64,000 nucleotides of DNA from a virus. Made by a program: the position numbers and the translations under genes. Each line of letters opens with the position of its first letter. Position 1 is the first letter of the stretch. Under the pieces are notes generated by a model that ran no database searches, was not told the origin of the DNA, and saw only the letters and a list, made by a program, of their open reading frames with translations. The stretch lies in IMG/VR virus record IMGVR_UViG_3300045988_182948; one strand, 5' to 3'. Positions 15,257 through 58,130 of this stretch are shown piece after piece.

Positions 15257-15283
15257 TTCTTATAATCCTTTCTTCTTATCTTT

Positions 15284-15941: not shown

Positions 15942-15967
15942 ATAAATACAAGGCTAATATTTTCCTC

Positions 15968-38263: not shown

Positions 38264-38316
38264 ATCATTATTTTATAAAGCAACACGCAAAAAGTGAGTG
38301 TTCGTCATAAAATATT

Positions 38317-38391
38317 TGGTACCCAATATAGGAATCGAACCTATAATTGATGGTTCGTAGCCATCTGTTTTATCCATTAGACTAATTGGGT
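38317..38391 (-). tRNA. tRNA-Arg (ACG)
   Basis: Perfect 7-bp acceptor, anticodon loop CTACGAA, encoded CCA. Confidence 0.7.
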
Positions 38392-38399
38392 ATGTTTTT

Positions 38400-38473
38400 T
38401 GGAGGCCTCGACCAGACTTGAACTGGTATAAATAGGGTTGCAGCCTATTGCATAGCCATTCTGCCACGAGGTC
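38400..38473 (-). tRNA. tRNA-Cys (GCA)
   Basis: Anticodon loop CTGCAAC. One A:C mismatch in the acceptor stem. Confidence 0.6.
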
Positions 38474-38517
38474 GCAAATATTTTCTTTTTGTTTTACAAT
38501 ATTTTAACTTTATATTT

Positions 38518-39597
38518 TCATTTAATGACCCATTGAAGTTTTGAATCATCAGTAAAATATAATTCTCCTCCATAATCAGAGCACCAACTTTTGTCCAAAT
38601 TGACTTTTTCTTCATTGTTTTTCAATTCTATTTCATAATCTTGTTTCATCTGAGAAACTAAATTATCTTCTCGTGAAATTGAAATATTACTCTTCAAAGT
38701 TTTGTTTATAATAACATTTCCACTAATAAGACTATCTTTAAATTCATCTATAGTGGCTTTTTTAATGATTTTTTTATATATTTTTTTATTTGCACTTTCA
38801 TAACAACAAATCTGTAATACTTTGCGTATTTGAAAATTAGGCTCATATCTTCCTGCTAAATAAATAATTATTGGGTTTACATAGTTACTAAATGTAAAAA
38901 GTCTTTTTTCTTTATCATCTAATTTTAGAGGAAATAAAATGATATAATCATATTTTTTATTTTCATCTAATTCACATAAAGAAGAACAAGTGTCCTCAAC
39001 TCCATTATAGTTATAGATAATTTCATAATTCAAAAAATAATTATTTATAAGTTTTTTAATATCCTCATACTCTTTTATTTCTTTCAAAGGCTTTGCTTTC
39101 ATTTTCTTTTGATTAAGAACATCAATAATAATATTTATATATTCTTCTGTGACATTTTTATTATTAATAAATATAGGCTCAGATGTAAAATCGGTTGTAC
39201 GATATAACTGAATTGTTTTTTCTCTATATATTTCATTTAAAACGTTAGCTACTTTATCAATATGATTGACATAAATATCCTTTTTCAAGAAAATATTTTC
39301 AATATAAAACTTTAAAACATCTTGCCAATTATTATTAACAAATAAATTTTCCATATCTTCTGGTGATGTAACATAAAAAAGTGTTTTTAACTTATCCATC
39401 AAAATCTCTGATTTTATAAATGAGTCTTTTGTAAACATACTACTTAATTTATTATAATTGTCTATAGTTTCCTCTACATTTTCTCGAAGATGTTTTCCAT
39501 GAAAAGCTTCTTCAAGGTTATTATAATATTTTTCCTTATACAAAAAACCATCTGAATATGTCGGTGACAGATTTAACTCTTTAATATTTGTTATCAT
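38518..39597 (-). CDS. hypothetical protein embedded in the tRNA array (very AT-rich; Lys/Asn/Ile-rich)
   Basis: 359-aa ORF lying between tRNA-Cys and the next tRNA block. Confidence 0.45.
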   Translation of the reverse strand: MITNIKELNLSPTYSDGFLYKEKYYNNLEEAFHGKHLRENVEETIDNYNKLSSMFTKDSFIKSEILMDKLKTLFYVTSPEDMENLFVNNNWQDVLKFYIENIFLKKDIYVNHIDKVANVLNEIYREKTIQLYRTTDFTSEPIFINNKNVTEEYINIIIDVLNQKKMKAKPLKEIKEYEDIKKLINNYFLNYEIIYNYNGVEDTCSSLCELDENKKYDYIILFPLKLDDKEKRLFTFSNYVNPIIIYLAGRYEPNFQIRKVLQICCYESANKKIYKKIIKKATIDEFKDSLISGNVIINKTLKSNISISREDNLVSQMKQDYEIELKNNEEKVNLDKSWCSDYGGELYFTDDSKLQWVIK

Positions 39598-39874
39598 ATA
39601 ACACCTCTCTCGTCCATCTAAAGGCTTTATAGTAGCCTTTTAAAAACTAGTTAAAATAAATCAATACTCCTTAAAAACCCCTGCTGGCATCTGCCATATA
39701 TATTCTGGAGTGCTTTTCAGTATTCTGACTTACCATGCCTATATCAGAAGTTTGATGAACTGAAAAGAATTTTTCGGATAAGGTTTTACATGGATATTTA
39801 TATACCTTATACCTGTAGAGGAAAATTTTAGAATATGTTATCAGCAAAAACAATTTATATCCTAAATAATATTT

Positions 39875-39913
39875 GGTGCTCATAGTAGGATTTGAACCAT
39901 CATATGGGCGTTT
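39875..39913 (-). other. tRNA 3'-half-like fragment (TGG + acceptor + degenerate T-arm)
   Basis: TGGTGCTCATAGTAGGATTTGAACCATCAT. Only the T-loop and acceptor are recognisable. Confidence 0.3.
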
Positions 39914-39989
39914 TGGTAGGAATAATAGGAATCGAACCTATATTGCACGATTATCGGTCGTGAGTACTCACCAGTTGTACGATACTCCT
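39914..39989 (-). tRNA. tRNA-Ile (GAU) with C at position 33
   Basis: Anticodon arm CACGA-CCGATAA-TCGTG. Good acceptor, D-arm and T-arm. Confidence 0.6.
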
Positions 39990-39992
39990 ATA

Positions 39993-40066
39993 TGGTATCC
40001 GTTGGTGGTAATGCTCCACCGTCTTCAACTTGTAAGGATGATGTTCTTCTTTTAAACTAAACGGAT
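39993..40066 (-). tRNA. tRNA-Val (UAC) with an atypical T-loop (AGCATTA)
   Basis: Perfect acceptor and T-stem GGTGG/CCACC. Anticodon loop CTTACAA. Confidence 0.5.
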
Positions 40067-40067
40067 A

Positions 40068-40144
40068 TGGTCTCGATAAAAGGATTTGAACCTTTACAAA
40101 CTCGGTCCCAGGCCGAGTGCACTACCAAATTATGCTATATCGAG
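40068..40144 (-). tRNA. tRNA-Pro (UGG) with C at position 33
   Basis: Anticodon arm CTCGG-CCTGGGA-CCGAG. Perfect acceptor. Confidence 0.6.
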
Positions 40145-40270
40145 AGGAAAGAGAATATCTCTTCCGTATTTATGGTGGACCAGACATAATATGTTTATCT
40201 ATTACTACAATAGACTGGACTCCGAGATACTTCCCAATATCTTATCTTTACCTTATTTCATGAAGGAAAC

Positions 40271-40345
40271 TGGCACCTCTTGAAGGAATCGAACCCACAT
40301 CGTGGAGGTAGAAACTCCATGCTCTATCCATTAAGCTAAAGAGGT
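40271..40345 (-). tRNA. tRNA-Arg (UCU)
   Basis: Anticodon loop TTTCTAC. Perfect acceptor. Confidence 0.65.
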
Positions 40346-40548
40346 AATAATGATAACTACTTATCGCAATAGCCTTAGCATCTGACTCCTTATACAGAAT
40401 ATACTTTCATTTTCTATTCTTTCATGCACTTTCAAATATACTAAGAAAATATATATTTTCGTCAAAGCCAACCTCCTAGCTCGTGACTATCTGCATCCAT
40501 TGCTTATGCAGTTTCCACATGGTTTTATTTAATAAATTATATAATCAT

Positions 40549-40625
40549 TGGTGGACGATATAGGATTCGAACCTATGACCAGTCGGTTATGAGCCGACAG
40601 CTCTGACCATCTGAGCTAAACGTCC
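40549..40625 (-). tRNA. tRNA-Met/Ile2 (CAU)
   Basis: Anticodon arm GTCGG-CTCATAA-CCGAC. Confidence 0.65.
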
Positions 40626-40637
40626 ATATTTTTAAAA

Positions 40638-40716
40638 TGGTGGAAACTTTGGAATTCGAATCCAACTGATTTCCTGTGTGCAAAACAGGTGACCACACCT
40701 AGCAGTCCCAGTTCCC
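40638..40716 (-). tRNA. tRNA-Ala (UGC) with G3:U70
   Basis: Anticodon loop TTTGCAC. Acceptor GGGAACT/AGTTTCC gives the G3:U70 identity pair. Confidence 0.6.
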
Positions 40717-40728
40717 AATAATACATTA

Positions 40729-40816
40729 TGGCGCTGACTATAGGACTCGAACCTATGCTAGATTTACATCTAGTACGGTTTAGCAAACCGCTGCTTTACC
40801 ACTCAGCCAAGTCAGC
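40729..40816 (-). tRNA. tRNA-Ser (GCU), class II
   Basis: Anticodon loop TTGCTAA. Long variable arm CTAGAT-TTAC-ATCTAG. Perfect acceptor. Confidence 0.6.
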
Positions 40817-40824
40817 AAAAATAT

Positions 40825-40911
40825 TGGTACTCCCAATGGGAGTCGAACCCATACGAGCTTTTGCCCACAGAAGTTTAAGTTCTGTATGTCTACCGATTTC
40901 ATCATAGGAGT
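40825..40911 (-). tRNA. tRNA-Leu (UAA), class II
   Basis: Anticodon arm CAGAA-CTTAAAC-TTCTG. Confidence 0.6.
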
Positions 40912-40914
40912 ATT

Positions 40915-40999
40915 TGGTCTTCTCGAAGAGATTTGAACTCTTACGCTATAAAGCACTAGTTTCTAAAACTAGCATGTCTACCTATTCCATCACGAGAAG
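40915..40999 (-). tRNA. tRNA-Leu (UAG), class II
   Basis: Anticodon arm CTAGT-TTTAGAA-ACTAG. Perfect acceptor. Confidence 0.65.
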
Positions 41000-41004
41000 A
41001 TGAT

Positions 41005-41081
41005 TGGTGGTTTCAGATGGACTTGAACCAACGCTACGAGAAGTTTCAGTTATCTGCTCTACCAGATTGAGCTATGAAACC
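41005..41081 (-). tRNA. tRNA-Phe (GAA)
   Basis: D-arm GCTC..GAGC. Anticodon loop CTGAAAC. Perfect acceptor. Confidence 0.7.
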
Positions 41082-41095
41082 AGATGATAAAATAT

Positions 41096-41170
41096 TGGCA
41101 CCTCTGTAAGGAGTCGAACCTTAAGTTTTGGTTTTGGAGACCAATGTGTTCCCTTTTACACTACAGAGAT
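41096..41170 (-). tRNA. tRNA-Trp (CCA)
   Basis: Anticodon arm TTGGT-CTCCAAA-ACCAA. Confidence 0.7.
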
Positions 41171-41172
41171 AT

Positions 41173-41249
41173 TGGCATCAGGGAGAGGGCTCGAACCTCT
41201 AAATGTGGGAGTCAAGGTCCCATGTGCTTACCAGTTTCACCACCCTGAT
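41173..41249 (-). tRNA. tRNA-Gln (UUG) with C at position 33
   Basis: Anticodon arm TGGGA-CCTTGAC-TCCCA. Perfect acceptor. Confidence 0.6.
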
Positions 41250-41363
41250 ATCTAAATAGATTTAGTATACTTGGAAGTGGTTGAACCCTCATACCCTCTA
41301 TTAGAAGTCGAGTGCATTACCAACTTTGCTACAAGTACAATATATAATTATGAAATTTTTTAA

Positions 41364-41450
41364 TGGTGGGCCCCACTGGATTCGAACCAGCAATGTTTCT
41401 AATGTCACAGATTTACAGTCTGCTTCCTTCACCAATTTGGATAGAGACCC
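41364..41450 (-). tRNA. tRNA-Tyr (GUA), class II
   Basis: Anticodon loop CTGTAAA. 3-bp D-stem and long variable region. Acceptor has two G:U pairs. Confidence 0.55.
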
Positions 41451-41457
41451 ATATGTT

Positions 41458-41540
41458 TGGCGCTCAGTGAGGGACTCGAACCCCCAAGTCCTTTCTGACC
41501 AACTGTTTTCAAGACAGCACGACTATGGAATTACCCAATG
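41458..41540 (-). tRNA. degenerate tRNA-like sequence (Ser-UGA-like anticodon arm; acceptor 5' strand and D-arm not foldable)
   Basis: Good TGG, acceptor 3' strand and T-arm (GGGGG/TTCGAGT/CCCTC). Anticodon arm CTGT-CTTGAAA-ACAG. No complementary 5' acceptor was found. Confidence 0.3.
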
Positions 41541-41750
41541 GTTGTTGACAAGAAAGGTCTCCTAAGATGATATAGTCTTAAACTTTATATAAATAAGCGC
41601 ACCATACAGGTGTATCATCTCAGGTTTTTCAAGCCTCAAGGTTTCTGGTCTGCCAATTATCTACTATAAACCTTTTTTCGATTTAATAAATAATCATAAG
41701 ATATAATGTTATTCTATAAAATAACTATCCAACAATGAATACAATATATT

Positions 41751-41825
41751 TGGTATCCGAGGTGGGATTCGAACCCACGATTACCTGATAGAGCGCTAAA
41801 GCGTAAACTGCTTGCCAACTCGGAC
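41751..41825 (-). tRNA. tRNA-like gene, anticodon arm not resolved
   Basis: Perfect acceptor and T-arm (GTGGG/TTCGAAT/CCCAC) with a 40-nt core that did not fold canonically by hand. Confidence 0.35.
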
Positions 41826-41830
41826 ATATT

Positions 41831-41907
41831 TGGCGGACCCTACAGGACTTGAACCTGCGACCCTTCGCTTAACAGGCGAACGCTCTAACCAACTGAGCTA
41901 AAGGTCC
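41831..41907 (-). tRNA. tRNA-Asn (GUU)
   Basis: Anticodon arm TTCGC-CTGTTAA-GCGAA. Canonical D-arm. Confidence 0.7.
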
Positions 41908-41916
41908 ATATAATTT

Positions 41917-41991
41917 TGGAGTGAGTAAAGGGTATCGAACCCTCATCCTCTGCTTGGAAGGCAGATATACTAACCGTTGTACTATACTCAC
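41917..41991 (-). tRNA. tRNA-Gly (UCC)
   Basis: Anticodon arm TCTGC-CTTCCAA-GCAGA. Perfect acceptor. Confidence 0.7.
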
Positions 41992-41998
41992 ATTCATA

Positions 41999-42074
41999 TG
42001 GTGCCATCTGAGAGATTCGAACTCCCAACCAACTGATTACAGGTCAGCTGCACTTCCAGTTGTGCTAAGGTGGC
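41999..42074 (-). tRNA. tRNA-Thr (UGU) with C at position 33
   Basis: Anticodon loop CCTGTAA. D-arm GCAC..GTGC. Confidence 0.55.
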
Positions 42075-42078
42075 AAAT

Positions 42079-42153
42079 TGGCGGAACATAGGAGAATTGA
42101 ACTCCTATCTCTTGATAGACAGTCAAGTATATTTTCCATTATACGAATGCTCC
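42079..42153 (-). tRNA. tRNA-Asp (GUC), position 37 is U
   Basis: Anticodon arm CTTGA-CTGTCTA-TCAAG. Confidence 0.55.
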
Positions 42154-42154
42154 A

Positions 42155-42231
42155 TGGTTGCAGAGGCAGGATTTGAACCTGCGACCTCAGGATAATGAGT
42201 CCTGCGAGCTACCAAACTGCTCTACTCTACG
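42155..42231 (-). tRNA. tRNA-Met (CAU), initiator-like (C1:A72 mismatch)
   Basis: Anticodon arm CAGGA-CTCATTA-TCCTG. Canonical D- and T-arms. 1:72 is unpaired (C/A), as in bacterial tRNA-fMet. Confidence 0.55.
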
Positions 42232-43557: not shown

Positions 43558-45270
43558 TTATTCATCCCACCAGTTATAATTTTTAATGTCATCTTCAATC
43601 TGATGAGAGCTTGAGGATGATTGTTTTTTTATTTGCCTGATTGCTTCACTTTCTTGAATTCCCGGAGAAAACCATGCTGGTTTATCTGAGTTGTTCTTCA
43701 AATCATTAAACAAAAATGTTAGAAAGCAGTTTATTTGATTATCTGGAGTCTTGAAAGAATATCCAGAGGTTTTTATTCTATCAAGAATATTAAGCATAAT
43801 TGAATCAAAGGATGCCTGATGAATAATAAGTTTTTCAAGATTCATTATTAACAAATCCCCTTCTATCATTTTTGCTTCTTTACTCATATAGAATTTCTTA
43901 AAGAGCTTCAGTTTATTGAAGCAGGCATTGAGAAAGTCTTTATCAGTGTTTTCTATAAAGATTGAATTATAAATAGAAGAATTGATTTCATTAATTAAAT
44001 TAATTAATAAAGAATCGTTTTTATTATTTTCAGTATAAGTATTTAAAGTTTTATTAATGTTGATATCTTTTTCGCTATTTTGTTTCTTTCTTTTTGAAGA
44101 AATTGTTTCTTTCATATCTGATGAAATGATGGCTCTTGATGGAGTCTTGATATCTGTCAAATTCTCTGAATTATGGCTCTTTTCAATTTTTTCTTCATCA
44201 TTATAAGTCAAATTCACGAAATTGTGGCTCTCATCTAATATGTCATAATCATCAAATTGTGGCTCACTGAATTCTTTCATGTCTATATCTTCAAGGTATT
44301 GCTTTACAAATTGATATATTTTATCTGGGAAGTTTCTTGTTCCATTTTCCCATTTGGAATATGTCTGTTTATAAAGGCTTAATGAATATTTTTTATTTAT
44401 AGCCTCTACTATCTGTTTTTGGGTTAAGTTATGCTTTAAGCGAAGCTGTTTAACATATGTATAATTTCTTTTATTTTTATTGATAATTAAATCTTCTTTG
44501 AGTTGGTCCATGCGACTCTTTAGATATAGTTTTTTGTTTTTGCTGTCTAAGCTTTCAAATTCTTCAACATTATCTTCAAAGTTGAAAAGTTTTAATAGAT
44601 AGAAACGGGTATCCTGTGAAAATGCTCTATATTCAAATAATAAACCACAGGCTTTTAAAAGATATCTTCCTCTTTTTAATGCTGACTGTCCAAGCCCTAA
44701 TTTCTTTTCCTGAGTTTCAAGAGATTCTTGGAAGTATATTCTTTCTTTGTCATCCACAAAATAATTCATTTGAGATAAACACATTGTATCAAAGTATATA
44801 GAATATTGAAGTTTTGTAGCTAGAGGTAGATTGTTATAAATATCATCAAATAATTCATTTGGAAACCTAAAGAAATTGTAACTATCTAAATCTGTTTCAT
44901 AATAAAACTCATCTGTTTCATCTTTTTTATTATAGTTATATAGATATATCTTATTATTTCCAACGCTTCGCTTATAGTTGATGAGTCCAACCCTCTTTAA
45001 ATCTGCTCTTGCTCGGCAACATGTTGATTCACTAATTTTTAATTTATTCATTATATCAGAATCTGAGTAGATAATATAAGGACCACTGTTATCTTTATAA
45101 GTGGTAATGATATATCTGTTTAAATAGAGAGAATACATAAACTTTGCTGGAACAGAAAGTTTTTTGAATCTATTATCTGAAAATAAGACTTTTGGTATAG
45201 ATAAGAAAGCATCTATTTTTGTTGTATCATTAATATTATAGTATTTAGATTCTTTATCCATAGAAAACAC
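43558..45270 (-). CDS. RepA_N-family replication initiator with an internal XRE-like HTH
   Basis: The N-terminal FLSIPKVLFSDNRFKKLSVPAKFMYSLYLNR...GLINYKR matches the Firmicutes plasmid RepA_N signature. A central HTH is LTQKQIVEAIN. A TATAAT with RBS GGGAGG lies immediately upstream. Confidence 0.6.
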   Translation of the reverse strand: MFSMDKESKYYNINDTTKIDAFLSIPKVLFSDNRFKKLSVPAKFMYSLYLNRYIITTYKDNSGPYIIYSDSDIMNKLKISESTCCRARADLKRVGLINYKRSVGNNKIYLYNYNKKDETDEFYYETDLDSYNFFRFPNELFDDIYNNLPLATKLQYSIYFDTMCLSQMNYFVDDKERIYFQESLETQEKKLGLGQSALKRGRYLLKACGLLFEYRAFSQDTRFYLLKLFNFEDNVEEFESLDSKNKKLYLKSRMDQLKEDLIINKNKRNYTYVKQLRLKHNLTQKQIVEAINKKYSLSLYKQTYSKWENGTRNFPDKIYQFVKQYLEDIDMKEFSEPQFDDYDILDESHNFVNLTYNDEEKIEKSHNSENLTDIKTPSRAIISSDMKETISSKRKKQNSEKDININKTLNTYTENNKNDSLLINLINEINSSIYNSIFIENTDKDFLNACFNKLKLFKKFYMSKEAKMIEGDLLIMNLEKLIIHQASFDSIMLNILDRIKTSGYSFKTPDNQINCFLTFLFNDLKNNSDKPAWFSPGIQESEAIRQIKKQSSSSSHQIEDDIKNYNWWDE

Positions 45271-48954: not shown

Positions 48955-49962
48955 TTAAAGTATCAATACAGTATCATTCATTTTGAAATATTCAGAACTG
49001 AGATATAACTCATCAGCATTCATGAGAACTGCATTCATGAGAAGTTTTGTGAATTTGTAAGATTCAATAGGCTTTTTGACTGTTACTTTTTTTGATATCT
49101 CAAATATTTTTTCCCCTTGCAAATAGAATATACCATCAATCACCTCAATAATGACCTTGAATGGGGCATTTGTTTTTTTATTAATAGAACTATTCTTCTT
49201 TTTTAAATTCAATTCCTTGAGCTGTTTCAGTTCTTCCAATGAAAGAACATATTCTCTTGCTTTGGCATATTCACATAAGTATGCTTCATCTGTGTCTATT
49301 AAAGGAGCTACATAAATATCATTTTTCCCCTTAAATATTAAAGTTGAGGAATGATTGCGAGTTTGGATGGATAATTCTATATTTTCATATAATCCATCAG
49401 CAAAGCTACTTATTGCCTTGCAGAGACTCTTTGAGAGATGATATGCAAGATTTTTGTTGGTGCTTGTGACACCTTCAAGTCTTAGCTGATGAATGCAATC
49501 TGTTCCCCAAAAATAAAGTTCCTTATTTTGAAGAATGAAAGTGGGATGTTGCAGGAATTTTAGATAGCTGAGACCTGTTGTCATTTCCTCTAGAATATTA
49601 AAATTTCTTAGCGTTCTGGAATGAATATTCCCTATAGCCTCACCAGTAATATCCAATATACTTAAATCCGCCTCTTTATAGGGTATTGTTATTTCTTCTA
49701 CTAAGCTTCCATTCTTTTTCATATAAATAACTATCCTATGGTTTTGAATGCCAAAGACATGCTTTGCGCCATGAATTCTCTTATATCCCTGATAAAAATC
49801 CTTTATTGTAAACATGATAGGTGCTTCAATCTTTTCTGGTAATATATGAATTTCTTTCGTTTTTGCTATGCTATCAGTTATACAGCATTTGTTATCAATA
49901 AAAATAATATCCCCTTCCCTATTCTCATAATTCTCTATAAACTTAATATTTCTCTTAATCAT
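48955..49962 (-). CDS. hypothetical protein
   Basis: 335-aa ORF. Confidence 0.4.
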   Translation of the reverse strand: MIKRNIKFIENYENREGDIIFIDNKCCITDSIAKTKEIHILPEKIEAPIMFTIKDFYQGYKRIHGAKHVFGIQNHRIVIYMKKNGSLVEEITIPYKEADLSILDITGEAIGNIHSRTLRNFNILEEMTTGLSYLKFLQHPTFILQNKELYFWGTDCIHQLRLEGVTSTNKNLAYHLSKSLCKAISSFADGLYENIELSIQTRNHSSTLIFKGKNDIYVAPLIDTDEAYLCEYAKAREYVLSLEELKQLKELNLKKKNSSINKKTNAPFKVIIEVIDGIFYLQGEKIFEISKKVTVKKPIESYKFTKLLMNAVLMNADELYLSSEYFKMNDTVLIL

Positions 49963-50300
49963 CTGACTACCTCTTTGTTTCTATATGGTCCTTTTCTTTT
50001 TGGATGAATATCCATAGAGATTGTAAAGATTGATGTCTTATCCTTGTATCGGGAAATATATTCATAGGTTTTGGAAAGAATGTTGAGAGAATCGGTGTTT
50101 ATATAAAGGCTGATATTATTGGGAATATAGATTTCATTGAATAGGTAATTTGTAAGTTCCTCATTTGTAAGAAATTCATCAAATCGGGGGTTTTGAAGAT
50201 ATAGCCAAGCAAGATATGACTGTAGGAATTCCTTATAGATATCCCCCATTTTCTCTAAATCTTTTGATTTTTTTTTCTTAGCTTGTTCTTTTAGGCTCAT
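49959..50300 (-). CDS. hypothetical protein
   Basis: 113-aa ORF, coupled to its neighbours by 4-nt overlaps. Confidence 0.4.
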   Translation of the reverse strand: MSLKEQAKKKKSKDLEKMGDIYKEFLQSYLAWLYLQNPRFDEFLTNEELTNYLFNEIYIPNNISLYINTDSLNILSKTYEYISRYKDKTSIFTISMDIHPKRKGPYRNKEVVR

Positions 50301-50881
50301 TTGCTTTCACTCCTGATAGATACATCAAGTTCTTTATTTTTTGAGATTCCTTTTCTACTATATATATCCTTGTCACGGAAAGCTTTTTTGGAAATAGATA
50401 TGTAGTCTCTCAATTTATCATCTTCAACTAGAGACGTTATGAAGTCCTTTGCATTTTCTATATTTGGCACAGTAATATATTTACATGTGACAGTTCCATA
50501 TCCCTTAAAATGTATTGATTTCTCTGTTAGCCCTTCTTTTTTTGCATCAGTCATAATCAGTTCACCAATCTCAGACTTAATACTGTCAGACGCCCCTTTT
50601 ATTCCTTTAAGTGTTTTTCTTGCTTCATTGACATATGTTGAGGATTCCTTAATTAGCGTTTTGGCTAGATTGTGTATTTCTTTATCTGTAAAGCCTCTGT
50701 CTTTTAGTGTGCTGATTGTCTCATGAAGCTCTTCAGGAAAGTCTTCACTATTCTCATAGAATGACTGAATCATTTTGTTTGCACTATCAGAATACTCATC
50801 AAAGCGTGAGATATCTTGATTTATATTTTGTAAGTCTTCTAGCCTATCTAGAATTTTTTCCTCTGTTTTATAATCTTTCAT
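50297..50881 (-). CDS. hypothetical protein
   Basis: 194-aa ORF. Confidence 0.4.
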   Translation of the reverse strand: MKDYKTEEKILDRLEDLQNINQDISRFDEYSDSANKMIQSFYENSEDFPEELHETISTLKDRGFTDKEIHNLAKTLIKESSTYVNEARKTLKGIKGASDSIKSEIGELIMTDAKKEGLTEKSIHFKGYGTVTCKYITVPNIENAKDFITSLVEDDKLRDYISISKKAFRDKDIYSRKGISKNKELDVSIRSESK

Positions 50882-51437
50882 TGTCTTCCTCCTTTACTGT
50901 AATCTTGTTTTTATCAATATCTTCATGATAACTTGCAAAGAGTGCAAAGGCATCACTGATATCTTCGTTTGGAAAAATATATCCATATTTTAATCCTAGA
51001 GTTTCTCGTACTGTTTCCTTTTTTGCGTGACCATCACCTGTTATGTTTTTTTTAATAACTGATGGTGATAAAAAGTACTGCGGAGTATCTATAAAATAGG
51101 ACATTAAGAAACCATGGAGTTTCAAGAGTGTTTGTGATGATTTCAATCTCTTAGGATAAATAAAAATTCCTTCCATATACACACCTGTAATAAAATATTG
51201 GTTTTTAAGAGTATCTAGATAGTTTTTTATGCAGCCAAACTTGAGCTTTTCAAAATCCTCAGGTTTCATTTGGAGAGGTTTTTTGATTTTTGAGAGATTT
51301 ATATCATCTAGTAATATTCTCTTACTTTTTTCTTCATAGATGACAACGCCAGTATTTGATGTTGAAGCATCTAAAAAGAGTTGAATAGATGGCTTCTTTT
51401 TTAAGAATTTCGTTTCACGTGAAACATTTTTTGTCAT
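50868..51437 (-). CDS. RuvC-like Holliday junction resolvase (tentative)
   Basis: IQLFLDASTSNTGVVIYEE (cf. LGIDPGSRVTGYGVI), MEGIF, KNITGDGHAKKETV and DISDAFALFASYH parallel the RuvC catalytic blocks. Confidence 0.45.
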   Translation of the reverse strand: MTKNVSRETKFLKKKPSIQLFLDASTSNTGVVIYEEKSKRILLDDINLSKIKKPLQMKPEDFEKLKFGCIKNYLDTLKNQYFITGVYMEGIFIYPKRLKSSQTLLKLHGFLMSYFIDTPQYFLSPSVIKKNITGDGHAKKETVRETLGLKYGYIFPNEDISDAFALFASYHEDIDKNKITVKEEDNERL

Positions 51438-51489
51438 ATTCCTAAACCTCTTCTTTAGCAGAAAAAGAGGCTTTATAGCCCCTTTTCAC

Positions 51490-52164
51490 TTAATCGATTA
51501 AACCTTCAGCTTTAAATGCTTCAACTGCTGCTTCTGTAATGGCTTTGGCTGCTTCGGTATTGAATGTTCCACAGTGTGGAGCAGCTTTCCATTCCTTATT
51601 TGCATCTTGATAGCGTCTTGATGGGAATCTTAAATGATACTTTCCATTTTCATGATGCAATTCGACATCATGCATTGCCATTTTTTCAGTTGTTACAAAT
51701 GATGCATTTCCAACGAGTGCCTCAAAAGTAGGAACATCGCGCAATGTAGGGAAACGGATAATTGTTGGGTTTTCTTCTAATGCATTTGCCATTTCATCTT
51801 TCTCTGTTTCCACAAACTTTTCTTCCACTGTATCTTCAAAAGCTTTAACTACAGCAGCTTGAACTCTATCACGAACTTCCTTAGAAATAGGATGAATATA
51901 GCTTTGAGTCTGAGTTTCTCCATTTTTATCCTGATACTTTTTATATGGGAAGAAGATTGAGAATTTGTCATCTTCTTTTTCTGTCAATGAGACATTGCCA
52001 AATAGAGGTAAGCCCTCTGTTGTTACAGAGAAGAATCCGACTAATGTTGGATTATTTTCGAATGAAACTTTTCTAGGAAAAGTTACCTCCACTGATGGAT
52101 TTTCTTTATCAGCTGTTGATTTTGAAGCTGTAGCTGCAGCTTTTTTTGCTTTAATGCTTGCCAT
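51490..52164 (-). CDS. tandem SpoVG-domain protein
   Basis: Two repeats. The first contains ...FSIFFPYKK...SYIHPISKEVRDRVQAAVVKAFED, matching the SpoVG pattern (HPI..E.R..I..AV). Confidence 0.5.
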   Translation of the reverse strand: MASIKAKKAAATASKSTADKENPSVEVTFPRKVSFENNPTLVGFFSVTTEGLPLFGNVSLTEKEDDKFSIFFPYKKYQDKNGETQTQSYIHPISKEVRDRVQAAVVKAFEDTVEEKFVETEKDEMANALEENPTIIRFPTLRDVPTFEALVGNASFVTTEKMAMHDVELHHENGKYHLRFPSRRYQDANKEWKAAPHCGTFNTEAAKAITEAAVEAFKAEGLID

Positions 52165-52278
52165 GTTTATTTCCTCCTTATGTTTCGCATAGATTTACGT
52201 ATATATTTTATCATAAATTTCATGAGTTGCGTTTTTCTGTTTGGATGTTATAAGTGTCAAAGGGGTTAGATAGCCCAT

Positions 52279-53016
52279 TTACCCTTTGTCATGAATTATC
52301 CAATGCATAATAGCTAATTCTTTTAGCACTTCCTTTCTGACAACAATGTTAATTGGCTGCTCATATAATCCACATGATAAGACTGGATAGATATTCATGC
52401 GATTCCTATTTTTGACTAACTCTCCTTTTTCATTGAACCTTGCAGCACTTTTTTGGTGTATTTCATATGCTCTTATCTTATCAACAAGTACTTCTAAATC
52501 TCCTAAATGTCTTTCAATCTCTTTTTTAAGAGTTTCTTTATTGATAAGCATTGCTTCTGTTTCAGCTACATTATCTTGTGTCATAAGAGCCTTACCTTGC
52601 CTGTAGGATGAAGCTCCAATAATCTCATGATAGACGATAAGATAGTAATCTGTTTCTACATCTGGGTTAATTAGCCAACCTTTTTGCGAAGTGTTTATAT
52701 TTCCTGAAATTTCAAAGCAGAATGTTGGAAGCTGTGAAGCAATAGACTTTATATCTACTTTGATATCCTGACCATAAAGTTGAGCAATGACGTCAATTCC
52801 TCGTAGCTGTCTATCCCTGTCCTTCACAATTTCCTGAATATTCATATCCTTAAATATATTCGTGTTTTGAAGATATTGGATAGAAGTTTCTTCAAATGCT
52901 TTATCCCCTACCCAGTTTGTTCTTTTATTTGATTGTGATGAATGGATAGACCGAGATGTCCTGTTTCCTAGATTTAGTTTGTATACGTGGTTATTTTCTC
53001 TTTTATAAAAATCCAT
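52279..53016 (-). CDS. hypothetical protein
   Basis: 245-aa ORF. Confidence 0.4.
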   Translation of the reverse strand: MDFYKRENNHVYKLNLGNRTSRSIHSSQSNKRTNWVGDKAFEETSIQYLQNTNIFKDMNIQEIVKDRDRQLRGIDVIAQLYGQDIKVDIKSIASQLPTFCFEISGNINTSQKGWLINPDVETDYYLIVYHEIIGASSYRQGKALMTQDNVAETEAMLINKETLKKEIERHLGDLEVLVDKIRAYEIHQKSAARFNEKGELVKNRNRMNIYPVLSCGLYEQPINIVVRKEVLKELAIMHWIIHDKG

Positions 53017-53037
53017 AAAGTTTCATTCCTCCTTCCT

Positions 53038-53703
53038 TTATTTTTTATCAATATTTAAGATAGGCAAATCACCATTATAGTCTTTTTTTAGATGTTCAAA
53101 GATTTGATAAAGTGCTTCAACGTCATTAATAGCTCTATGTGCGACATATTCAATACCATATAATTTTCCTAAGTCAGACTGCTGATTTGATGCAACAAGT
53201 CCTTTTTCTTTTAGCTTCATGTTTATTGCCATCTTTAGTGTGTCTAGACTCCTTTCAAATGGAAAGTTAAGTTTGAATCTCTTTGTAGCTACTTTTAACA
53301 TTCTGTTATCAAAACTATTAATATTTTGTCCAACTGCTAGACTTGTTTCTTTGCTGTTGCACCATTCAACAAACTGTTTAACTACATCATATTCTGGTGG
53401 CTTATCACTTAACATCTTATTTGTAATACCAGTAATCTCAACAATTCTTTGAGTAATAAAAATCCCTGGATTACATAGTGCTGAAAATGAGTCAACAATA
53501 GTATTATCTTCAACATAAATAGCTCCAATTTCAATGATATGGTCCTTATTAGTTAAACCTGTTGTCTCTAGGTCATACATGATATAATTGCCAAGCGTTT
53601 TATCTGTGACTTGCTGATAGATGCAAATCGGAAATCGCAGGCATCTTAAATCATTTGATTCATCCAATAGGCAACCACATATTGGACACTTGTTCTGTTT
53701 CAT
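53038..53703 (-). CDS. DEDDh 3'-5' exonuclease with an N-terminal zinc ribbon
   Basis: CPICGC...C at the N-terminus. Exo motifs MYDLETTGL and HRAINDVEAL. Confidence 0.65.
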   Translation of the reverse strand: MKQNKCPICGCLLDESNDLRCLRFPICIYQQVTDKTLGNYIMYDLETTGLTNKDHIIEIGAIYVEDNTIVDSFSALCNPGIFITQRIVEITGITNKMLSDKPPEYDVVKQFVEWCNSKETSLAVGQNINSFDNRMLKVATKRFKLNFPFERSLDTLKMAINMKLKEKGLVASNQQSDLGKLYGIEYVAHRAINDVEALYQIFEHLKKDYNGDLPILNIDKK

Positions 53704-53956
53704 CTTTATCCTCCTTTAAATAATAAGATAATTGAAATTGTATAATAGACTGTTCTTTGATGTTCCTCCTCCTTGAATTGTTTAGACAGAGTCAATATGA
53801 TGACCTTGTCTTCAACAAAAAAGATATACCTCTGCTGAGATATACCTCTTCTTCGTTCTAATATACATTCATATTGTATCATATTTTTTAGCATTGAGTA
53901 TTTATATTAATCATGAAATTATTGTTTTAAGAGAAGTGACTCGTGAAATAAAAGGG

Positions 53957-53998
53957 GTTAGTTAACCCATTGTAAAGGTCAAGGGCTATTTAACCTTT
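53957..53998. repeat. two adjacent 14-bp palindromic parS-like sites (GGGGTTAGTTAACCC; AGGGCTATTTAACCT)
   Basis: The motif GGGYTAAnTTAACCC recurs at 54719, 54743, 55977 and 58107. Confidence 0.45.
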
Positions 53999-54035
53999 TT
54001 TATAAAAATGCTCTAATTAATTTGCAGGATTTCAT

Positions 54036-54088
54036 GTTGACTTTTAAAAGGGTTCTTCTTAAGTAAATATAACACTAACTTTATATTT
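54036..54088. repeat. left arm of a ~53-bp inverted repeat (partner at 55849-55900)
   Basis: GTTGACTTTTAAAAGGGTTCTTCTTAAGTAAATATAACACTAACTTTATATTT is the reverse complement of 55849-55900 with 3 mismatches. Confidence 0.6.
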
Positions 54089-54440
54089 ATAATTATTTTT
54101 AAGAGGATTTTGGTCGTTTATTTATGGTTTTTCTTATTTCTTATTCAGAATGCATTTTATTGGATATTTTTTCAGAAAAATGCATATTTTTTCAATTTTT
54201 TGAATTAGCATTATACTATCACTATTCAACCTTTGTTAAGTATAAAGCGAGGTGGGAGGGATTTATCAGGTATCTTGAAAAACTCTTTGGATATACTACC
54301 TCCTTAACATTCTTTAAAAACTCCTCCTATACCCCTTTTATTTCATTTGAGCTTATATGCTATAGCAAGTTTTTATATAATTGCTTATATAATCTCTAAA
54401 TTTCAATTCTAAGAGACTTTTATGTGCTTGGTGGATAGTT

Positions 54441-54480
54441 GGAGGGTGTTTGCGAATAGGAGGCGGAGAGAGGGAATTAA
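54441..54480 (+). repeat. GA-rich tract (GGATAGTTGGAGGG...ATAGGAGGCGGAGAGAGGG)
   Basis: A related purine tract lies at 55676-55725 in the same orientation. Confidence 0.4.
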
Positions 54481-54715
54481 GAGCGTTTTTATATGCTTAT
54501 GCTTAAAAATATATAAATGTTGATAAAGTAATAATTGAGTAACATCTCTTAACATCCCTCAATCTCTTTTAAACTCCTTTTTTTAAATTATGTTGGACCG
54601 TGATTCGTTTCATCATCTATTGAGAATCACCTTATGAAAGGTAGCAGAAAAGCATGTAGAAAGAATTTTATATAGAGCAAGTTTTTATATTGGATATAAA
54701 AGGATTGTAGGGAGG

Positions 54716-54756
54716 GGTTAAATAGCCCTTGACCTTTGATAAAGGTTAATTAGCCT
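54716..54756. repeat. inverted copy of the paired parS-like palindromes
   Basis: GGTTAAATAGCCCTTGACCTTTGATAAAGGTTAATTAGCC matches the reverse complement of 53957-53998. Confidence 0.45.
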
Positions 54757-55068
54757 TTGTATATAAAAGAAATGACTGGCATAGGTGATAATCCTATTTA
54801 CATTCTAGTAAAAATCTAATGACATAAAAAACAGCTAGATATGGAAGGAGTTAAAGAGATTTTTGTCATGCAGATATGTGTTAGCATATAAAAGTTTCCT
54901 TTTATAATTCCTTCTATCCTCTTTTCAATTCTAAATTTTAATAGATACAAAGAATGGTAGGAGGTTTTAATGAGAGTCTGCCTGTTAAGGGGAGTAGTTG
55001 GGGTATAAAGAGAATTTTGAGAGTAGATTAAGCTTATCTAAAAAAGTATGACTTGAGTTTGAGTGGAA

Positions 55069-55097
55069 TAAAAAAAAGACTCTCGAGAGAATCTTTA
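55069..55097 (-). terminator. terminator after minus gene 55095-55499
   Basis: A8-GACTCTCGAGAGAATC on the plus strand, i.e. hairpin plus T8 on the minus strand. Confidence 0.45.
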
Positions 55098-55499
55098 CAA
55101 ACACTTTCTAAGCTGTTCAGAGAGACTTCTAAGAATTTCCTGTGGGTATCTTACAAGCATGTTTAATGAGTCAGTATAGCAAAACTGTTTAGACTGAAAT
55201 CTAAATATTATCCATGATAATCCTACTAAAAATATAAATAGTATGAGCAGCACCAGAGAAAATGCCTGAGCATTCCATTGATGAGAAATGAAGATATAGA
55301 GGAGTGTTAGGAATGTTGAAAGAGCAATACTCATCAAATAATAAGTTGAAGTTTTAAATCTTGTATAAATATCAATCTTTGTTTTCTTTCCAGTCCCTAA
55401 TAAAAACTCTATACATTCCTGCTTGATAAGAATAGTTTCTCTTAAGTTAAATTTCATATATGACACCTCTTTTTTTTGTGAGTTACGAATAGCGAACAT
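55095..55499 (-). CDS. small membrane protein (3 TM)
   Basis: 134-aa ORF inside the inverted-repeat-bounded segment. Confidence 0.35.
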   Translation of the reverse strand: MFAIRNSQKKEVSYMKFNLRETILIKQECIEFLLGTGKKTKIDIYTRFKTSTYYLMSIALSTFLTLLYIFISHQWNAQAFSLVLLILFIFLVGLSWIIFRFQSKQFCYTDSLNMLVRYPQEILRSLSEQLRKCL

Positions 55500-55675
55500 C
55501 TTTTATAGTTAGGATTATAACATAAATACTTTTGGAAATCAATAAATATATGTTGCATCAGGTAAAGTATTGCTTTAGCATAAAAACTAGGAATGTGGTT
55601 GAATCAGAAGCAAACAAAGTATTTTGGGTAAGTGAATGGAATGGGTTTTTAAGAGAAAGGAAATGAATGTTGAGA

Positions 55676-55725
55676 GGAGGATAGGGGAGTAGGGAGAAGG
55701 GAGAGAGGTAGTAGGGGATAGAAAA
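55676..55725 (+). repeat. GA-rich iteron-like tract (GGATAGGGGAGTAGGGAGAAGGGAGAGAGGTAGTAGGGGATAG)
   Basis: Direct sub-repeats of GGGAG / TAGGG. Confidence 0.4.
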
Positions 55726-55848
55726 TGCGAAATCAATAAAATCGCTTTAAAATCTTCAAAATTAAAAAATTCACCATAAAAAAGTATGATGAAATAAAAG
55801 TCCAAAAAAACGCTCAAAAACCTCTAGAAACTCCTTAAAAATAGTGGC

Positions 55849-55900
55849 AAATATAAAGTTAGTGTTATATTTGCTTAAGAAGAACTCCTTTAAAAGTCAA
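55849..55900. repeat. right arm of the ~53-bp inverted repeat
   Basis: See 54036-54088. Confidence 0.6.
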
Positions 55901-55976
55901 ACCTTATTGACTCTCAATATATAATTCTCTAAAGATATTAAAAAAATCTAAAAACTTAAAGAATTATGCTTATGTG

Positions 55977-55990
55977 GGCTAACTAACCCA
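55977..55990. promoter_or_regulatory. parS-like 14-bp palindrome GGGCTAACTAACCC upstream of parA
   Basis: About 115 nt upstream of the parA ATG. Confidence 0.45.
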
Positions 55991-56102
55991 TGAAAATAAT
56001 TTCTATTGCGGAAAAAGTCAATTCAAGTTATAATTGACTTTGATTAGAGTATCTTGGATATAAAAATTTTATTAAAAAGCAAGGAATTCAATTGAGAAGG
56101 GA

Positions 56103-57056
56103 ATGGTAGCAATGGGCAAAAACACAAAAGTAATTACACTCTATAATCAAAAAGGAGGCGTTGGTAAAACAACAACAACAATTAATCTCGCTCAAGTTCT
56201 AGGGAGTACCTTTAATAAAAAAGTATTAATTATTGATAATGATGCTCAAAACTCTCTTAGCTTTCTGGCAAATATACAAATAAGAAATAATGGAGCTGTA
56301 GAAGATGAAGATGGATTAAAGACATTAGGGTGGCTGGAACAGATGTTTCAGTTATACGGAGATGTTCCAACAGTTCGAGATATTCAGGAAACAATTATAA
56401 CTCCAACATATCAAAAATCGGAGAGAATTGAAGGAACCATTGAGTGGGATATAGTCGAGAAAAAATTTGCGTTCGATATGATTCCTGGAACTGGAAAAGA
56501 CTTATCTTTGGCTGAATTGATTTTTATCACGCCCAACGATGAACCTTTTATTCTTAAGCCAGAAAATAGAAAATTGGCGCCATATGTCTTGAAAGTTATC
56601 ATTGAGCAAATAAAGAAATACTTTGATTATGATTATATCTTAATTGACTGTCCTCCATCACTAGGTATCTTAAGTATGGGAGCTCTAGTTGCATCAGATT
56701 ATTTAATTATACCAACAACAAGTGATATGCTTTCAACGATAGGGATTCAAACAATTATAGACAATCTTAAGGAATTACACTTATATGTACCAGACTTTAA
56801 TATATTAGGGGTTTTGTTTAATTGCTATTCAGATACAAAATATGATAATGAGTTGATAGAAGATGTAAGAAATTTTGGAGACTCTCAAGGAATATCTGTA
56901 TTTGAAGTGAAAATTCCTAAGAAAAATCAAATGAGAATGGTAAGTTCTGAAGAGATTATAGCAGTTCTCAAAAACGAGAAGGCTTTTAAGAGTTATACTG
57001 AGTCAATTATTGACCTTGCTCAAGAAATTATAAAGAAAAGTGAAGGGGGAGAATAG
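56103..57056 (+). CDS. parA: ParA/Soj-family partition ATPase
   Basis: Deviant Walker [15 protein letters not shown] and IIDCPPSLG. Confidence 0.85.
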
Positions 57057-57058
57057 TT

Positions 57059-58087
57059 ATGCCACCAAAAAAGAAATCGATGAGTGATACGGGAACACAT
57101 AAGGCTTCTTCATCAAGTCTGTTCTCAGCTCTTGGAGATGGAATAGATGTTACTGGTTTTGACCCAGATTCAAAAACAGTGAGTGAAACATCCAGATTTA
57201 GAACCGAATATCTAGAACTATCAAAAATTATAGACAATAAAAGTAACAATTTTAGAGCCTTGGATACATTCTATTTGGAATTGTCAATTGCAAAGGTAGG
57301 GCAACTTCAACCAATTATTCTAGTTCCAGAAGTTGTAGAAGGAAAATCAACTGGGCTCTATGAAATAAAAGTGGGGTCTCGACGTTTTGCTGCATTAAAT
57401 AGGCTACTAGAAAAAGCTTTTAAAAAGAGTAATCAAAAGGACATTGAAAAGTACTCAAAAGCTTTTGCAATTATTCTGCCTTATGGTGCTACTCAAGATG
57501 AAATTGAAACAATTTATCGAGAAACGAATACTACAGCCAGACCATTAACTGTAGAAGAAGTTTTCGCCCATTTTGATGGTATCTTTAAAATAAGTGACAC
57601 AGGTGAATTTGTTCATATTCCAAAAGGTGTCAACAAGTATGAATATGTATCCAAAGAGTTTAAGAGGATGGGATTTGATTTTTCGGCAACAAAAGTCAAA
57701 GAGTACTTAACAATTTATAGTGCATCTGATAAAAGAGTTACAGACTGGTTTGAAGATAAGCTTTTAACACGTCAGCAGGCTGTAGAAGTGTCAAGAATGC
57801 CTTCGGCTATGCAAATATCTGTAATGGATAAGTTTGAGCAGATGACAACTAAGGAAATAAGTGATTATATTAAGACTTACATGCTGGAAAAGAAAACAGA
57901 GAAGCTTACAAAGAAAATGAGAGGAATCGATGCAATTAGCTTTGTAATAAAGAGCAATAAAAATCTGAAACATATTGCAGTAATGGAAAATATCAGATTT
58001 CAATCAGAAGATGAGAAACTTAGTTTCTTAAGTCAGATACAGGAGCTTCAGGACCATTTGAATAAAATTGAAAAGTTATTAAAATAA
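57059..58087 (+). CDS. parB: ParB-like partition protein
   Basis: YEIKVGSRRFAAL corresponds to the ParB GERRxRA box. Lies immediately downstream of parA. Confidence 0.6.
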   Translation: MPPKKKSMSDTGTHKASSSSLFSALGDGIDVTGFDPDSKTVSETSRFRTEYLELSKIIDNKSNNFRALDTFYLELSIAKVGQLQPIILVPEVVEGKSTGLYEIKVGSRRFAALNRLLEKAFKKSNQKDIEKYSKAFAIILPYGATQDEIETIYRETNTTARPLTVEEVFAHFDGIFKISDTGEFVHIPKGVNKYEYVSKEFKRMGFDFSATKVKEYLTIYSASDKRVTDWFEDKLLTRQQAVEVSRMPSAMQISVMDKFEQMTTKEISDYIKTYMLEKKTEKLTKKMRGIDAISFVIKSNKNLKHIAVMENIRFQSEDEKLSFLSQIQELQDHLNKIEKLLK

Positions 58088-58102
58088 TAAATGAGCATTA
58101 TA

Positions 58103-58130
58103 AAAAGGGCTAATTAACCCTTTTTATTTT
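58103..58130 (+). terminator. terminator after parB that also carries a parS-like palindrome (GGGCTAATTAACCC)
   Basis: Hairpin AGGGCTAATTAACCCT followed by TTTTTATTTTTT. Confidence 0.5.

Follow-up and report, generated by a model that had tools for sequence, protein, structure and literature searches.

The 64,000-nucleotide (nt) stretch of DNA that we analyzed, hereafter the window, is the virus record IMGVR_UViG_3300045988_182948 of IMG/VR. Between positions 54037 and 55900 it contains a 1.8-kb, mostly non-coding segment that is bounded by inverted repeats (the arms) and is followed on its right by a pair of partition genes, parA and parB. We found that palindromes of the type bound by ParB (parS-like sites) lie around and within this segment, that all assemblies sampled carry it in one orientation, and that its arms are kept in divergent relatives. 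The parS assignment and the static nature of the segment are well supported by these sequence comparisons. The reading that we favor for the segment as a whole, to which we give about as much credence as doubt, takes it as a static centromere and regulatory region with dyad symmetry that lies upstream of parAB. The replicon that carries it is best read as a ~190-205 kb RepA_N-type extrachromosomal element of gut Erysipelotrichaceae. The features of the locus, with lengths of proteins in amino acids (aa), are listed here in their order along the window.

52264..52276, no strand: outlying parS-like site, intergenic, upstream of a SpoVG-like gene
52664-52677: outlying parS-like site, found by pattern search
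53955..53995, no strand: parS-like pair GGGTTAGTTAACCC, GGGCTATTTAACC, just outside the left arm
54037..54235, plus strand: left arm, read inward, with box TTGACTTTTAAAAGGGTTCTTCTT at 54037-54060, an AT palindrome and phased T-tracts
54441..54480, plus strand: second GA-rich tract, accompanied by CT-rich tracts at 54293-54340 and 54541-54585
54716..54756, no strand: internal parS-like pair, an inverted copy of the left pair, found by pattern and repeat searches
55073..55096, minus strand: probable terminator of the small gene, a palindrome followed by a T-run, from the sequence; a terminator scan did not pick it up
55095..55457, minus strand: gene for a 120-aa protein with two predicted transmembrane segments, supported by strain conservation
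55514..55542, minus strand: small-gene promoter TTGATT-N17-TATAAT with extended -10 TG (10/12 match plus TG)
55676..55725, plus strand: polypurine tract abutting the right-arm A-tracts, with a G-quadruplex (G4)-type motif and short TAGGGGAG / TAGGGAGA-type repeats
55725..55900, minus strand: right arm, read inward, with its box at 55877-55900 and then an AT palindrome as in the left arm
55976..55989, no strand: parS-like palindrome GGGCTAACTAACCC, 75 bp beyond the right arm and upstream of the parA promoter
56006..56043, plus strand: parA promoter TTGCGG-N17-TATAAT with probable operator dyad AAAGTCAATT-N8-AATTGACTTT, from the sequence
56103..58087, plus strand: parA (317 aa) and parB (342 aa), from profile matches
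58107..58120, no strand: parS-like palindrome GGGCTAATTAACCC, directly after the parB stop codon

ParA is a Walker-type ATPase (AAA_31, 1e-35) without an N-terminal extension, and it has a sub-threshold match to PrgP of pCF10. ParB is much more divergent. Its matches to Pfam (16.6 bits versus a cut-off of 26.3) and to TIGR00180 (19.7 versus 58.5) were weak, and it matched a ParB-like PHROG family at 2.5e-12. The N-terminal domain of ParB aligns to the structures of Noc and ParB, with GSRRF in place of GERRW (the GxRR motif), and the 342-aa protein is of the ParB/Noc type and not of the small RepC/PrgO type. Because no relatives of the ParB protein were found in PLSDB, INPHARED or the GTDB species representatives, the replicon family seems to be undescribed.

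A search with the pattern GGSYTANYTAACC (consensus GGGTTA-NN-TAACCC) gave 12 matches that occupy 8 positions, none of them outside 52264-58120, compared to 0.67 matches expected in 64 kb. The ParB-type palindrome is 14 bp long, has the form GGGYTAnnTAACCC and lies mostly in promoter-proximal intergenic DNA; GGGTTAnnTAACCC is the candidate ParB-site sequence. A preliminary description of this DNA, made from the letters alone, had offered an origin and centromere region as one of three readings. With eight ParB-type palindromes around parAB, the centromere half of that reading is well supported; the origin half is not, as there are no regular iterons and the compositional switch described below lies elsewhere. 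The internal inverted copy of the parS-like pair that it mentioned is also there: positions 53956-53995 match 54716-54755 over 40 nt at 83%. Sites of this consensus occur at corresponding places in two divergent relatives of the element, the loci L023 and L024. In L024 they are at 5676, 8402 (internal) and 11034 (after parB), matching window positions, and the site at 8988 in L023 is the counterpart of the window site at 55976. The promoter form TTGnnn-N17-TATAAT upstream of parA is likewise conserved in the window element, L023 and L024. The AAAGTCAATT-N8-AATTGACTTT dyad lies over the parA -10 and reuses the TGACTT half-site of the box found in each arm. TTGACTTT is locally enriched: there are 15 copies in the window, and four of these fall within 2 kb, at 54037, 55893, 56014 and 56034.

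The inverted repeat is real. Positions 54037-54088 agree with reverse-complemented 55849-55900 in 49 of the 52 bases, and since the matched arm begins at 54037, the left start given previously, 54036, has to move right by one base. The longest stretch of exact inverted identity between the arms is 24 nt, and in shuffled sequences (n = 100) it reached 18 nt at most. With weaker similarity included, the arms grow to about 136-190 nt; a repeat search gave 54037-54172 and 55765-55900 (136 nt, 74%, 100/136). Each arm is made up of an asymmetric 24-bp box, TTGACTT-N9-GKTCTTCTT, followed by ~130 bp of A-tracts with a 10-bp phase. The AT palindrome of the left arm, AAATATAA-N7-TTATATTT, ends at 54088 and is followed by ~145 bp of T-tracts in 10-bp phase; the phased A-tracts of the right arm are at 55725-55848. 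The arms are flanked by GGATTTCAT and ACCTTATTGA, and a further dyad, AAGTCAA-N6-TTGACTC (55894-55913), is located at the outer side of the right arm. A periodicity of ~10 bp in the A/T-tracts was found in all six arms of the window element, L023 and L024 (shuffle p ≤0.002 in five, with <0.002 for the left arm of the window, and 0.04 in one), which indicates that the arms are intrinsically bent DNA. RNAalifold detected no conserved RNA fold in the six arms on either strand. Given this and the phased A-tracts, we take the arms to be DNA elements that combine a box of the protein-binding type with bent DNA.

Variation among 21 strains indicated that the arm cores are constrained. There were no variable sites in 54034-54105 at the left-arm core and one singleton in 55828-55926 at the right-arm core; the regional mean was one variable site per 25 bp. 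The cores of the two arms are 94% and 88% alike within an element, and ~60-75% alike between elements. The higher likeness within an element points to concerted evolution or to co-evolution with an element-specific binding protein. We also considered the arms as promoters. As inward sigma-70 promoters they would have TTGACT-N17 followed by TAAGTA, TATACA or TTAACA; we rejected this reading because the putative -10 hexamers always end in A. An outward extended -10-like sequence, TGtTATATT at 55863-55871, is mirrored in the left arm and is a plausible promoter element in the window element only.

Comparison with relatives showed that the arms are the best-conserved non-coding blocks between elements. 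The identity of ParB homologs drops from 99% directly to 48%, the value for L023; that for L024 is 44%. Both loci are syntenic with the window through the exonuclease operon, the segment, parAB and RecD2. In each of them, ~3.5 kb of mostly non-coding DNA separates the exonuclease operon from parAB; this region is also bounded by inverted arms and contains a minus-strand open reading frame (ORF) of 124-136 aa with two transmembrane segments, the positional counterpart of the 120-aa membrane-protein gene. Window positions 54037-54214 match L024 5739-5916 (72% over 178 nt, E 3e-31), window positions 55674-55900 match L023 8684-8910 (65% over 230 nt, E 2e-17), and every window arm matches both arms of each relative. 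Read inward, the six arms can be aligned over ~190 nt, with an invariant TTGACTT-N9-G.TCTTCTT followed first by T-tracts and further in by a polypyrimidine tract. More distant relatives (L025, L027 and L102; ParB 37-40%) are ordinary plasmids in which a RepA_N gene is divergent from parAB at a distance of 0.2-0.9 kb. They have palindromes of their own between repA and parA, upstream of parA, and no arms; in L025, a GAGTAGGGGAG block lies beside the palindromes.

The interior of the segment is mostly non-coding, as the preliminary description had it, and among its ORFs just one behaves as a gene across the 21 strains. The other three show truncations or frameshifts in part of the strains, or neutral evolution. 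For the 91-aa frame that had been called doubtful (ORF91, 54124-54399), we counted 2 synonymous against 8 non-synonymous changes, and one strain carries a truncated copy; 7 of 21 strains have a broken ORF76 and 20 of 21 a broken ORF62. The opposite-strand ORF for a membrane protein is a real gene, and its product is probably 120 aa long instead of the 134 aa assigned to it: a 2-bp indel at 55470-71 in 4 strains breaks the longer frame, which places the start at the internal ATG at 55457. All 21 strains keep the 120-codon frame unbroken, and 5 of the changes in it are synonymous and 4 non-synonymous. All homologs of the protein are at least 86% identical, meaning that it is specific to this element, and it had no family or PDB match. 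The TTGATT-N17-TATAAT arrangement of its strong extended -10 promoter is also present in L023 and L024, within a conserved block at 55497-55553.

The two GA-rich tracts have the composition that was claimed for them: 54441-54480 is 78% purine and 47% G, and 55676-55725 is 90% purine, 52% G and 0% C. They fall in the two G-richest 50-nt plus-strand windows of the 64 kb, and the third (54954) is also inside the segment. The G4-type motif at 55684-55717 is the sole one on either strand of the 64 kb, when block shuffles gave 0.08 per window. L023 (8711-8735) and L024 (8356-8377) have exactly one G4 motif each, located within the segment as well, on the strand that is sense for parA. The GA tracts had been described as iteron-like; the segment has no regular 17-22-bp iteron array. 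TRF detected weak purine repeats of period 7 and 15, A/T-tract repeats and nothing else. There are about 5 irregular TAGGGRRR-like units, and the repeat motifs of the interior are short, degenerate and in both orientations. The GA-rich and CT-rich tracts are present as inverted copies, including a hairpin-forming inverted repeat at 54836-54922. The analogous tracts of the relatives occur in both orientations and showed no strand bias in G.U pairs (10 versus 10), so the GA/CT tracts behave as DNA motifs and not as RNA stems. A scan of folding z-scores found a few stable hairpins in the window element, without comparative support, and Rfam matches in the window were limited to tRNAs. As a separate observation, plus-strand positions 54825-54924 form a long imperfect hairpin of a GA-rich and a CT-rich side (-26 kcal/mol, z = -3.7 to -4.2) with 7 G.U pairs, and the fold is much better on the plus strand; judged from the sequence, this hairpin could be a plus-strand RNA element.

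Several short motifs recur in the segment. AAACTCCT, noted previously as recurring, has 11 copies in the window (3.1 expected), 3 of which are inside the segment; over the window these copies probably reflect AGGAG, the ribosome-binding motif of minus-strand genes, seen on the complementary strand. Joint enrichment in the three segments (window, L023 and L024) was found for the 7-mers GGGAGTA, TAAAGTA/AGTATAA and AGCAAGT, none of which fits known promoter or iteron geometry. We set aside two other candidates. A degenerate pyrimidine 'iteron', CYYTYAAY, was enriched by 2-3 fold, too weak to build on, and TAAAGTAWWRCTTKAG (34 matches, 21 expected) is real in the segments and does not fit promoter geometry. 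A plus-strand motif, (TTGnn)AAAGTATAAC/TTGAG, occurs at window positions 54238, 54526 and 55565 and in the relatives at L023 6833 and 7953 and L024 6718, 8253 and 8517, with a GA- or CT-rich tract 10-90 nt further on. Together with AGCAAGT (window 54364 and 54676), it is jointly enriched in all three segments. A 224-aa SpoVG-domain protein is encoded 1.5 kb left of the segment (51490-52164, minus strand) and is kept in L024 and other relatives. As proteins of the SpoVG type are nucleic-acid binders, we speculate that this one is a candidate for binding the purine tracts.

Inverted repeats around a gene could mean an invertible switch or a transposase-less miniature inverted-repeat transposable element (MITE), and these were the other two readings proposed for the segment. 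Neither is supported by what we found. The segment has a single orientation in 24 of 24 assemblies and in two divergent lineages; the assemblies are consensus sequences in which a rare inversion would not show. Exact-protein look-up gave twenty loci (16 distinct sequences), and all of these are collinear with window positions 53600-56200 at 98.3-99.4% identity, and four further metagenome contigs are likewise collinear, with none inverted. L023 and L024 keep the internal orientation as well: the small ORF is opposite to the parA strand and the G-tract adjoins the right arm. A survey of the 50 ORFs of at least 110 aa in the 64-kb window, which left aside the remaining ~130 kb of the element, contained no recombinase, as noted before, and no transposase. 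There is no target-site duplication. Further copies of the arms, which a recent or mobile MITE insertion would lead one to expect, were not found: the arm box occurs in the window at these two sites only, and when IMG/VR and 241 million metagenome records were scanned for its pattern, only this locus and single chance matches came back. Searches with the segment DNA for near and distant matches in phages and plasmids returned trivial parA matches only. The segment was present in every assembly sampled and is in the same position in the relatives. The single orientation, the conserved architecture and the lack of a recombinase, a duplication and other copies argue against both a switch and a recent MITE insertion. 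One 2.4-kb metagenome contig (L051) was considered as a rearranged variant and rejected as a probable chimera with unrelated, higher-GC flavoprotein DNA. The feature concerned is L051 1-1814, with the junction between the right part of the segment and the flavoprotein DNA at window position 55396, inside the small ORF.

We used nucleotide composition to ask where replication starts. Because the raw GC skew follows gene orientation, we used the coding-strand skew at third codon positions (GC3 skew) to separate the two effects. Minus-strand genes up to 43.1 kb had a GC3 skew of ~0.3 (leading-like), and plus-strand genes at 7-14 kb had 0.02 (lagging-like), with -0.16 for the RepA_N gene. Plus-strand genes had 0.43 at 47.4-48.9 kb and 0.29 at 56-64 kb, and the seven minus-strand genes directly left of the segment (48955-53703) had a lagging-like mean of -0.02. 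Both contrasts were significant: p = 1.6e-4 by the Mann-Whitney test for the minus-strand genes at 48955-53703 versus those left of 43.1 kb, and p = 1.2e-3 for the plus-strand genes at 47-64 kb versus 7-14 kb. They place a switch between leading and lagging strands at ~43-47 kb, at the RepA_N gene. The GC3 skew of L023 and L024 has the same direction and is weaker. The RepA_N initiator gene is at 43558-45270, 8.8 kb from the segment (PF06970, 5e-15, 55.6 bits versus a cut-off of 30), and holds an in-frame 2x51-nt tandem repeat at 44151-44252. RepA_N plasmids reportedly carry their origin within or next to repA in most cases. DnaA boxes in the segment were at chance level and formed no cluster; AT-rich phased tracts are present in the arms. 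From the sequence, the main vegetative origin is probably in the RepA_N gene or beside it, ~10 kb to the left.

Under the reading that we favor, the segment is a fixed part of the partition region, neither a switch nor a mobile element and probably not a replication origin, with the order parS, arm, interior, arm, parS, parA promoter, parAB. ParB would load at the palindromes, and both arms would bind an element-encoded factor through their box, whose TGACTT half-site also builds the dyad over the parA -10. By bending the DNA, the arms would allow the 1.8-kb interior to fold back on itself, which would unite the outer and the inner (inverted) parS groups in one compact partition complex. This complex may be coupled to the autoregulation of both parAB and the divergent exonuclease operon. 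Several observations weigh against this account. The arms are missing from the classical RepA_N-parAB relatives (L025, L027 and L102), so a par locus of this family works without them, and the fold-back is a step that we infer. A centromere leaves the G4 and polypurine tracts unexplained. The genes on the two sides of the segment point away from each other, and the minimum of the raw cumulative GC skew over the whole sequence falls at ~53-54 kb, which taken at face value favors an origin here. The GC3 decomposition rests on few genes and may be confounded by gene-specific composition, and the repA genes of the relatives have no long internal repeats. Two conserved neighbor proteins, of 225 aa and 245 aa, had no family or PDB match.

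Some of these points bear on the main rival, that the segment is a replication origin, principal or second, used by the replisome of the element itself. The bent, AT-rich arms would then be zones of unwinding or initiator loading, and the G-rich tract would prime synthesis through an R-loop or G-quadruplex, as happens at ColE1 and mitochondrial CSBII. The divergence of gene orientation and the raw skew minimum are what this predicts, and two operons for replication and recombination flank the segment (exonuclease, RuvC-like, RecD2 and RecJ, with DnaE further downstream); the AT-rich phased A-tracts, the unique conserved G4 motif and the short motifs repeated in both orientations would suit it too. 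It has to contend, however, with a GC3 switch at ~43-47 kb and lagging-like genes directly left of the segment, with a RepA_N gene 8.8 kb away, with the lack of iteron arrays and of a DnaA-box cluster, and with a promoter scan that gave no convincing promoter to transcribe the G-tract. We regard an origin here as unlikely, though worth keeping in mind. Somewhat less likely still, the arms may be operators, unconventional promoters or insulators that co-regulate both outward operons independently of partition. Each arm points outward to an operon (the exonuclease operon on the left and parAB-recD2 on the right), the mirrored TGtTATATT has phased A-tracts upstream as in UP-like elements, the box has its TGACTT half-site in common with the parA -10 dyad, and the likeness of the arms within an element is as expected for sites read by one element-specific protein. 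However, the -35 and -10 matches are poor and are not kept in L023, and both operons have better and nearer promoters (56006-56034, and TGaTACAAT at 53873-53881).

The remaining two rivals return to mobility in other forms. The segment could be what is left, fixed and immobile, of a transposon-like element that entered the parS region long ago, in the ancestor of the large-element lineage. Terminal inverted repeats and an orphan cargo gene are what such a remnant would leave, and the classical relatives, which lack arms, have a repA-parA spacer of only 0.2-0.9 kb. We consider this improbable: besides the lack of a target-site duplication, a transposase and any other copy in the scans, the arms are constrained, near-invariant among strains and kept across lineages with ParB at 44-48%, and the symmetry reaches past the arms to the flanking parS sites. 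A programmed switch whose site-specific recombinase is encoded in another part of the element would account for the flanking inverted repeats and for an internal gene whose own promoter orientation could matter. It seems very improbable to us given one orientation in 24 assemblies and two divergent lineages, no recombinase among the 50 ORFs of the 64 kb, and arms that are 130-190 bp of bent DNA instead of short dyad-symmetric crossover sites.

The locus resembles several described systems in part. It is like type I ParABS systems (Spo0J-parS, and KorB-OB of the IncP plasmid RK2) in having a Walker ParA and a ParB N-terminal domain with GxRR, and like the KorB operator sites in that its 14-bp palindromes are spread over ~6 kb around the par operon; KorB operator sites serve both as centromere and as operators. 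It differs from type I systems in that its ParB is very divergent and its parS cluster is interrupted by a 1.8-kb arm-bounded segment. We know of no described par site with an arm-bounded segment of bent DNA and polypurine/G4 tracts inside a parS cluster. RepA_N plasmids of Firmicutes have repA divergent from a gene pair for a ParA-like and a centromere-binding protein, with short iterons between them. The replicon here shares a RepA_N initiator with RepA_N plasmids (of the pAD1/pCF10 and pSK41 type), and its distant relatives have repA divergent from parAB. In contrast to those plasmids, its repA is 8.8 kb off, its centromere-binding protein is ParB/Noc-like and not of the RepC/PrgO type, its purine repeats are few and irregular, and the replicon is ~190-205 kb long with its own polymerase and 21 tRNA genes. 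The purine-rich 8-mers TAGGGGAG and TAGGGAGA near the par sites resemble the par iterons of pAD1, TAGTARRR, for which a literature search gave no source.

In the R1 parC and pSK41-type centromeres, two phased arrays of ~10-11-bp repeats flank the par promoter and are wrapped as a superhelical segrosome. The arms are similar in that they, too, form a symmetric pair of arrays in front of a par operon, with a helical phasing of 10 bp; they differ in that the A-tracts are not clear iterons, the arrays are inverted and 1.6 kb apart, and the proteins are ParA and ParB and not ParM and ParR. As in invertible switches (Hin/hix, Gin/gix, fimS and Bacteroides invertons), inverted repeats bound a promoter and a gene, but with no recombinase in the 64 kb, one orientation sampled and long bent-DNA arms. 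As in MITEs and non-autonomous transposons, there are terminal inverted repeats and no transposase was found, but there is no target-site duplication, the segment is single-copy, its position is kept in distant relatives and purifying constraint acts on its arms.

Left of the segment is a minus-strand operon for a DnaQ-type exonuclease, the 245-aa protein, a SpoVG-like protein and a RuvC-like protein. Upstream of it, 53822-53881 contains two direct copies of AGAGGTATATCT (in the minus-strand reading) just downstream of an extended -10, TGaTACAAT; this is probably the promoter and operator of the exonuclease operon. Right of the segment are parA, parB and the genes for the 225-aa protein, RecD2 and RecJ, and full-length relatives continue after RecJ with genes for a ClpB-like protein, RadC and a DnaE-type polymerase. 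Three independent assemblies (L010-L012) end at an identical point (locus position 17845, window ~63.9 kb), where the ClpB-like gene starts, ~7.8 kb to the right of the beginning of parA; this shared end may mark a repeat or a hypervariable junction. Other genes of the window, which is ~31% GC, are for a topoisomerase, an FtsH-like protease and a Y-family polymerase, and the replicon further encodes an SPFH/flotillin protein, a VWA and AAA_5 pair and SIR2. The 21 tRNA genes of the window (38189-42231, minus strand) cover most amino acids and coincide with a local GC peak of ~40%. Among the relatives, L025, a classical RepA_N/ParAB plasmid of 23% GC, carries a block of NAD-salvage genes at 11503-16504 (NAD synthase, a nucleotidyltransferase, nicotinate phosphoribosyltransferase, an isochorismatase-family protein and an NrtR-like regulator).

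The replicon is very common in human-gut metagenomes and, to judge from the databases, seemingly undescribed. The exact ParA sequence is indexed in 1318 assembly blocks, with contigs of up to 206 kb, and a search of the literature on this element found nothing usable. Contigs of the replicon reach 190-206 kb, and one of them, the isolate contig AKCB01000004.1, carries the exact ParA sequence and is from Coprobacillus sp. D6 (PMC5410138). A defined maintenance region, with a parS consensus, a par promoter and operator and a probable origin, provides handles for tracking the replicon, for building Erysipelotrichaceae vectors and for curing. We propose, tentatively and as an unlikely but consequential possibility, that the arms and the single conserved G4/polypurine tract together make up an undescribed bipartite cis-element of large gut Erysipelotrichaceae replicons. 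Such an element could be a secondary origin primed by a G4 or R-loop, or alternatively a protein-anchored DNA loop that corrals ParB clamps loaded from the internal parS sites; in either case it would have no counterpart in described plasmid maintenance regions. The arm architecture and the G4 tract might thus reveal a new organization of ParB complexes or a second origin.

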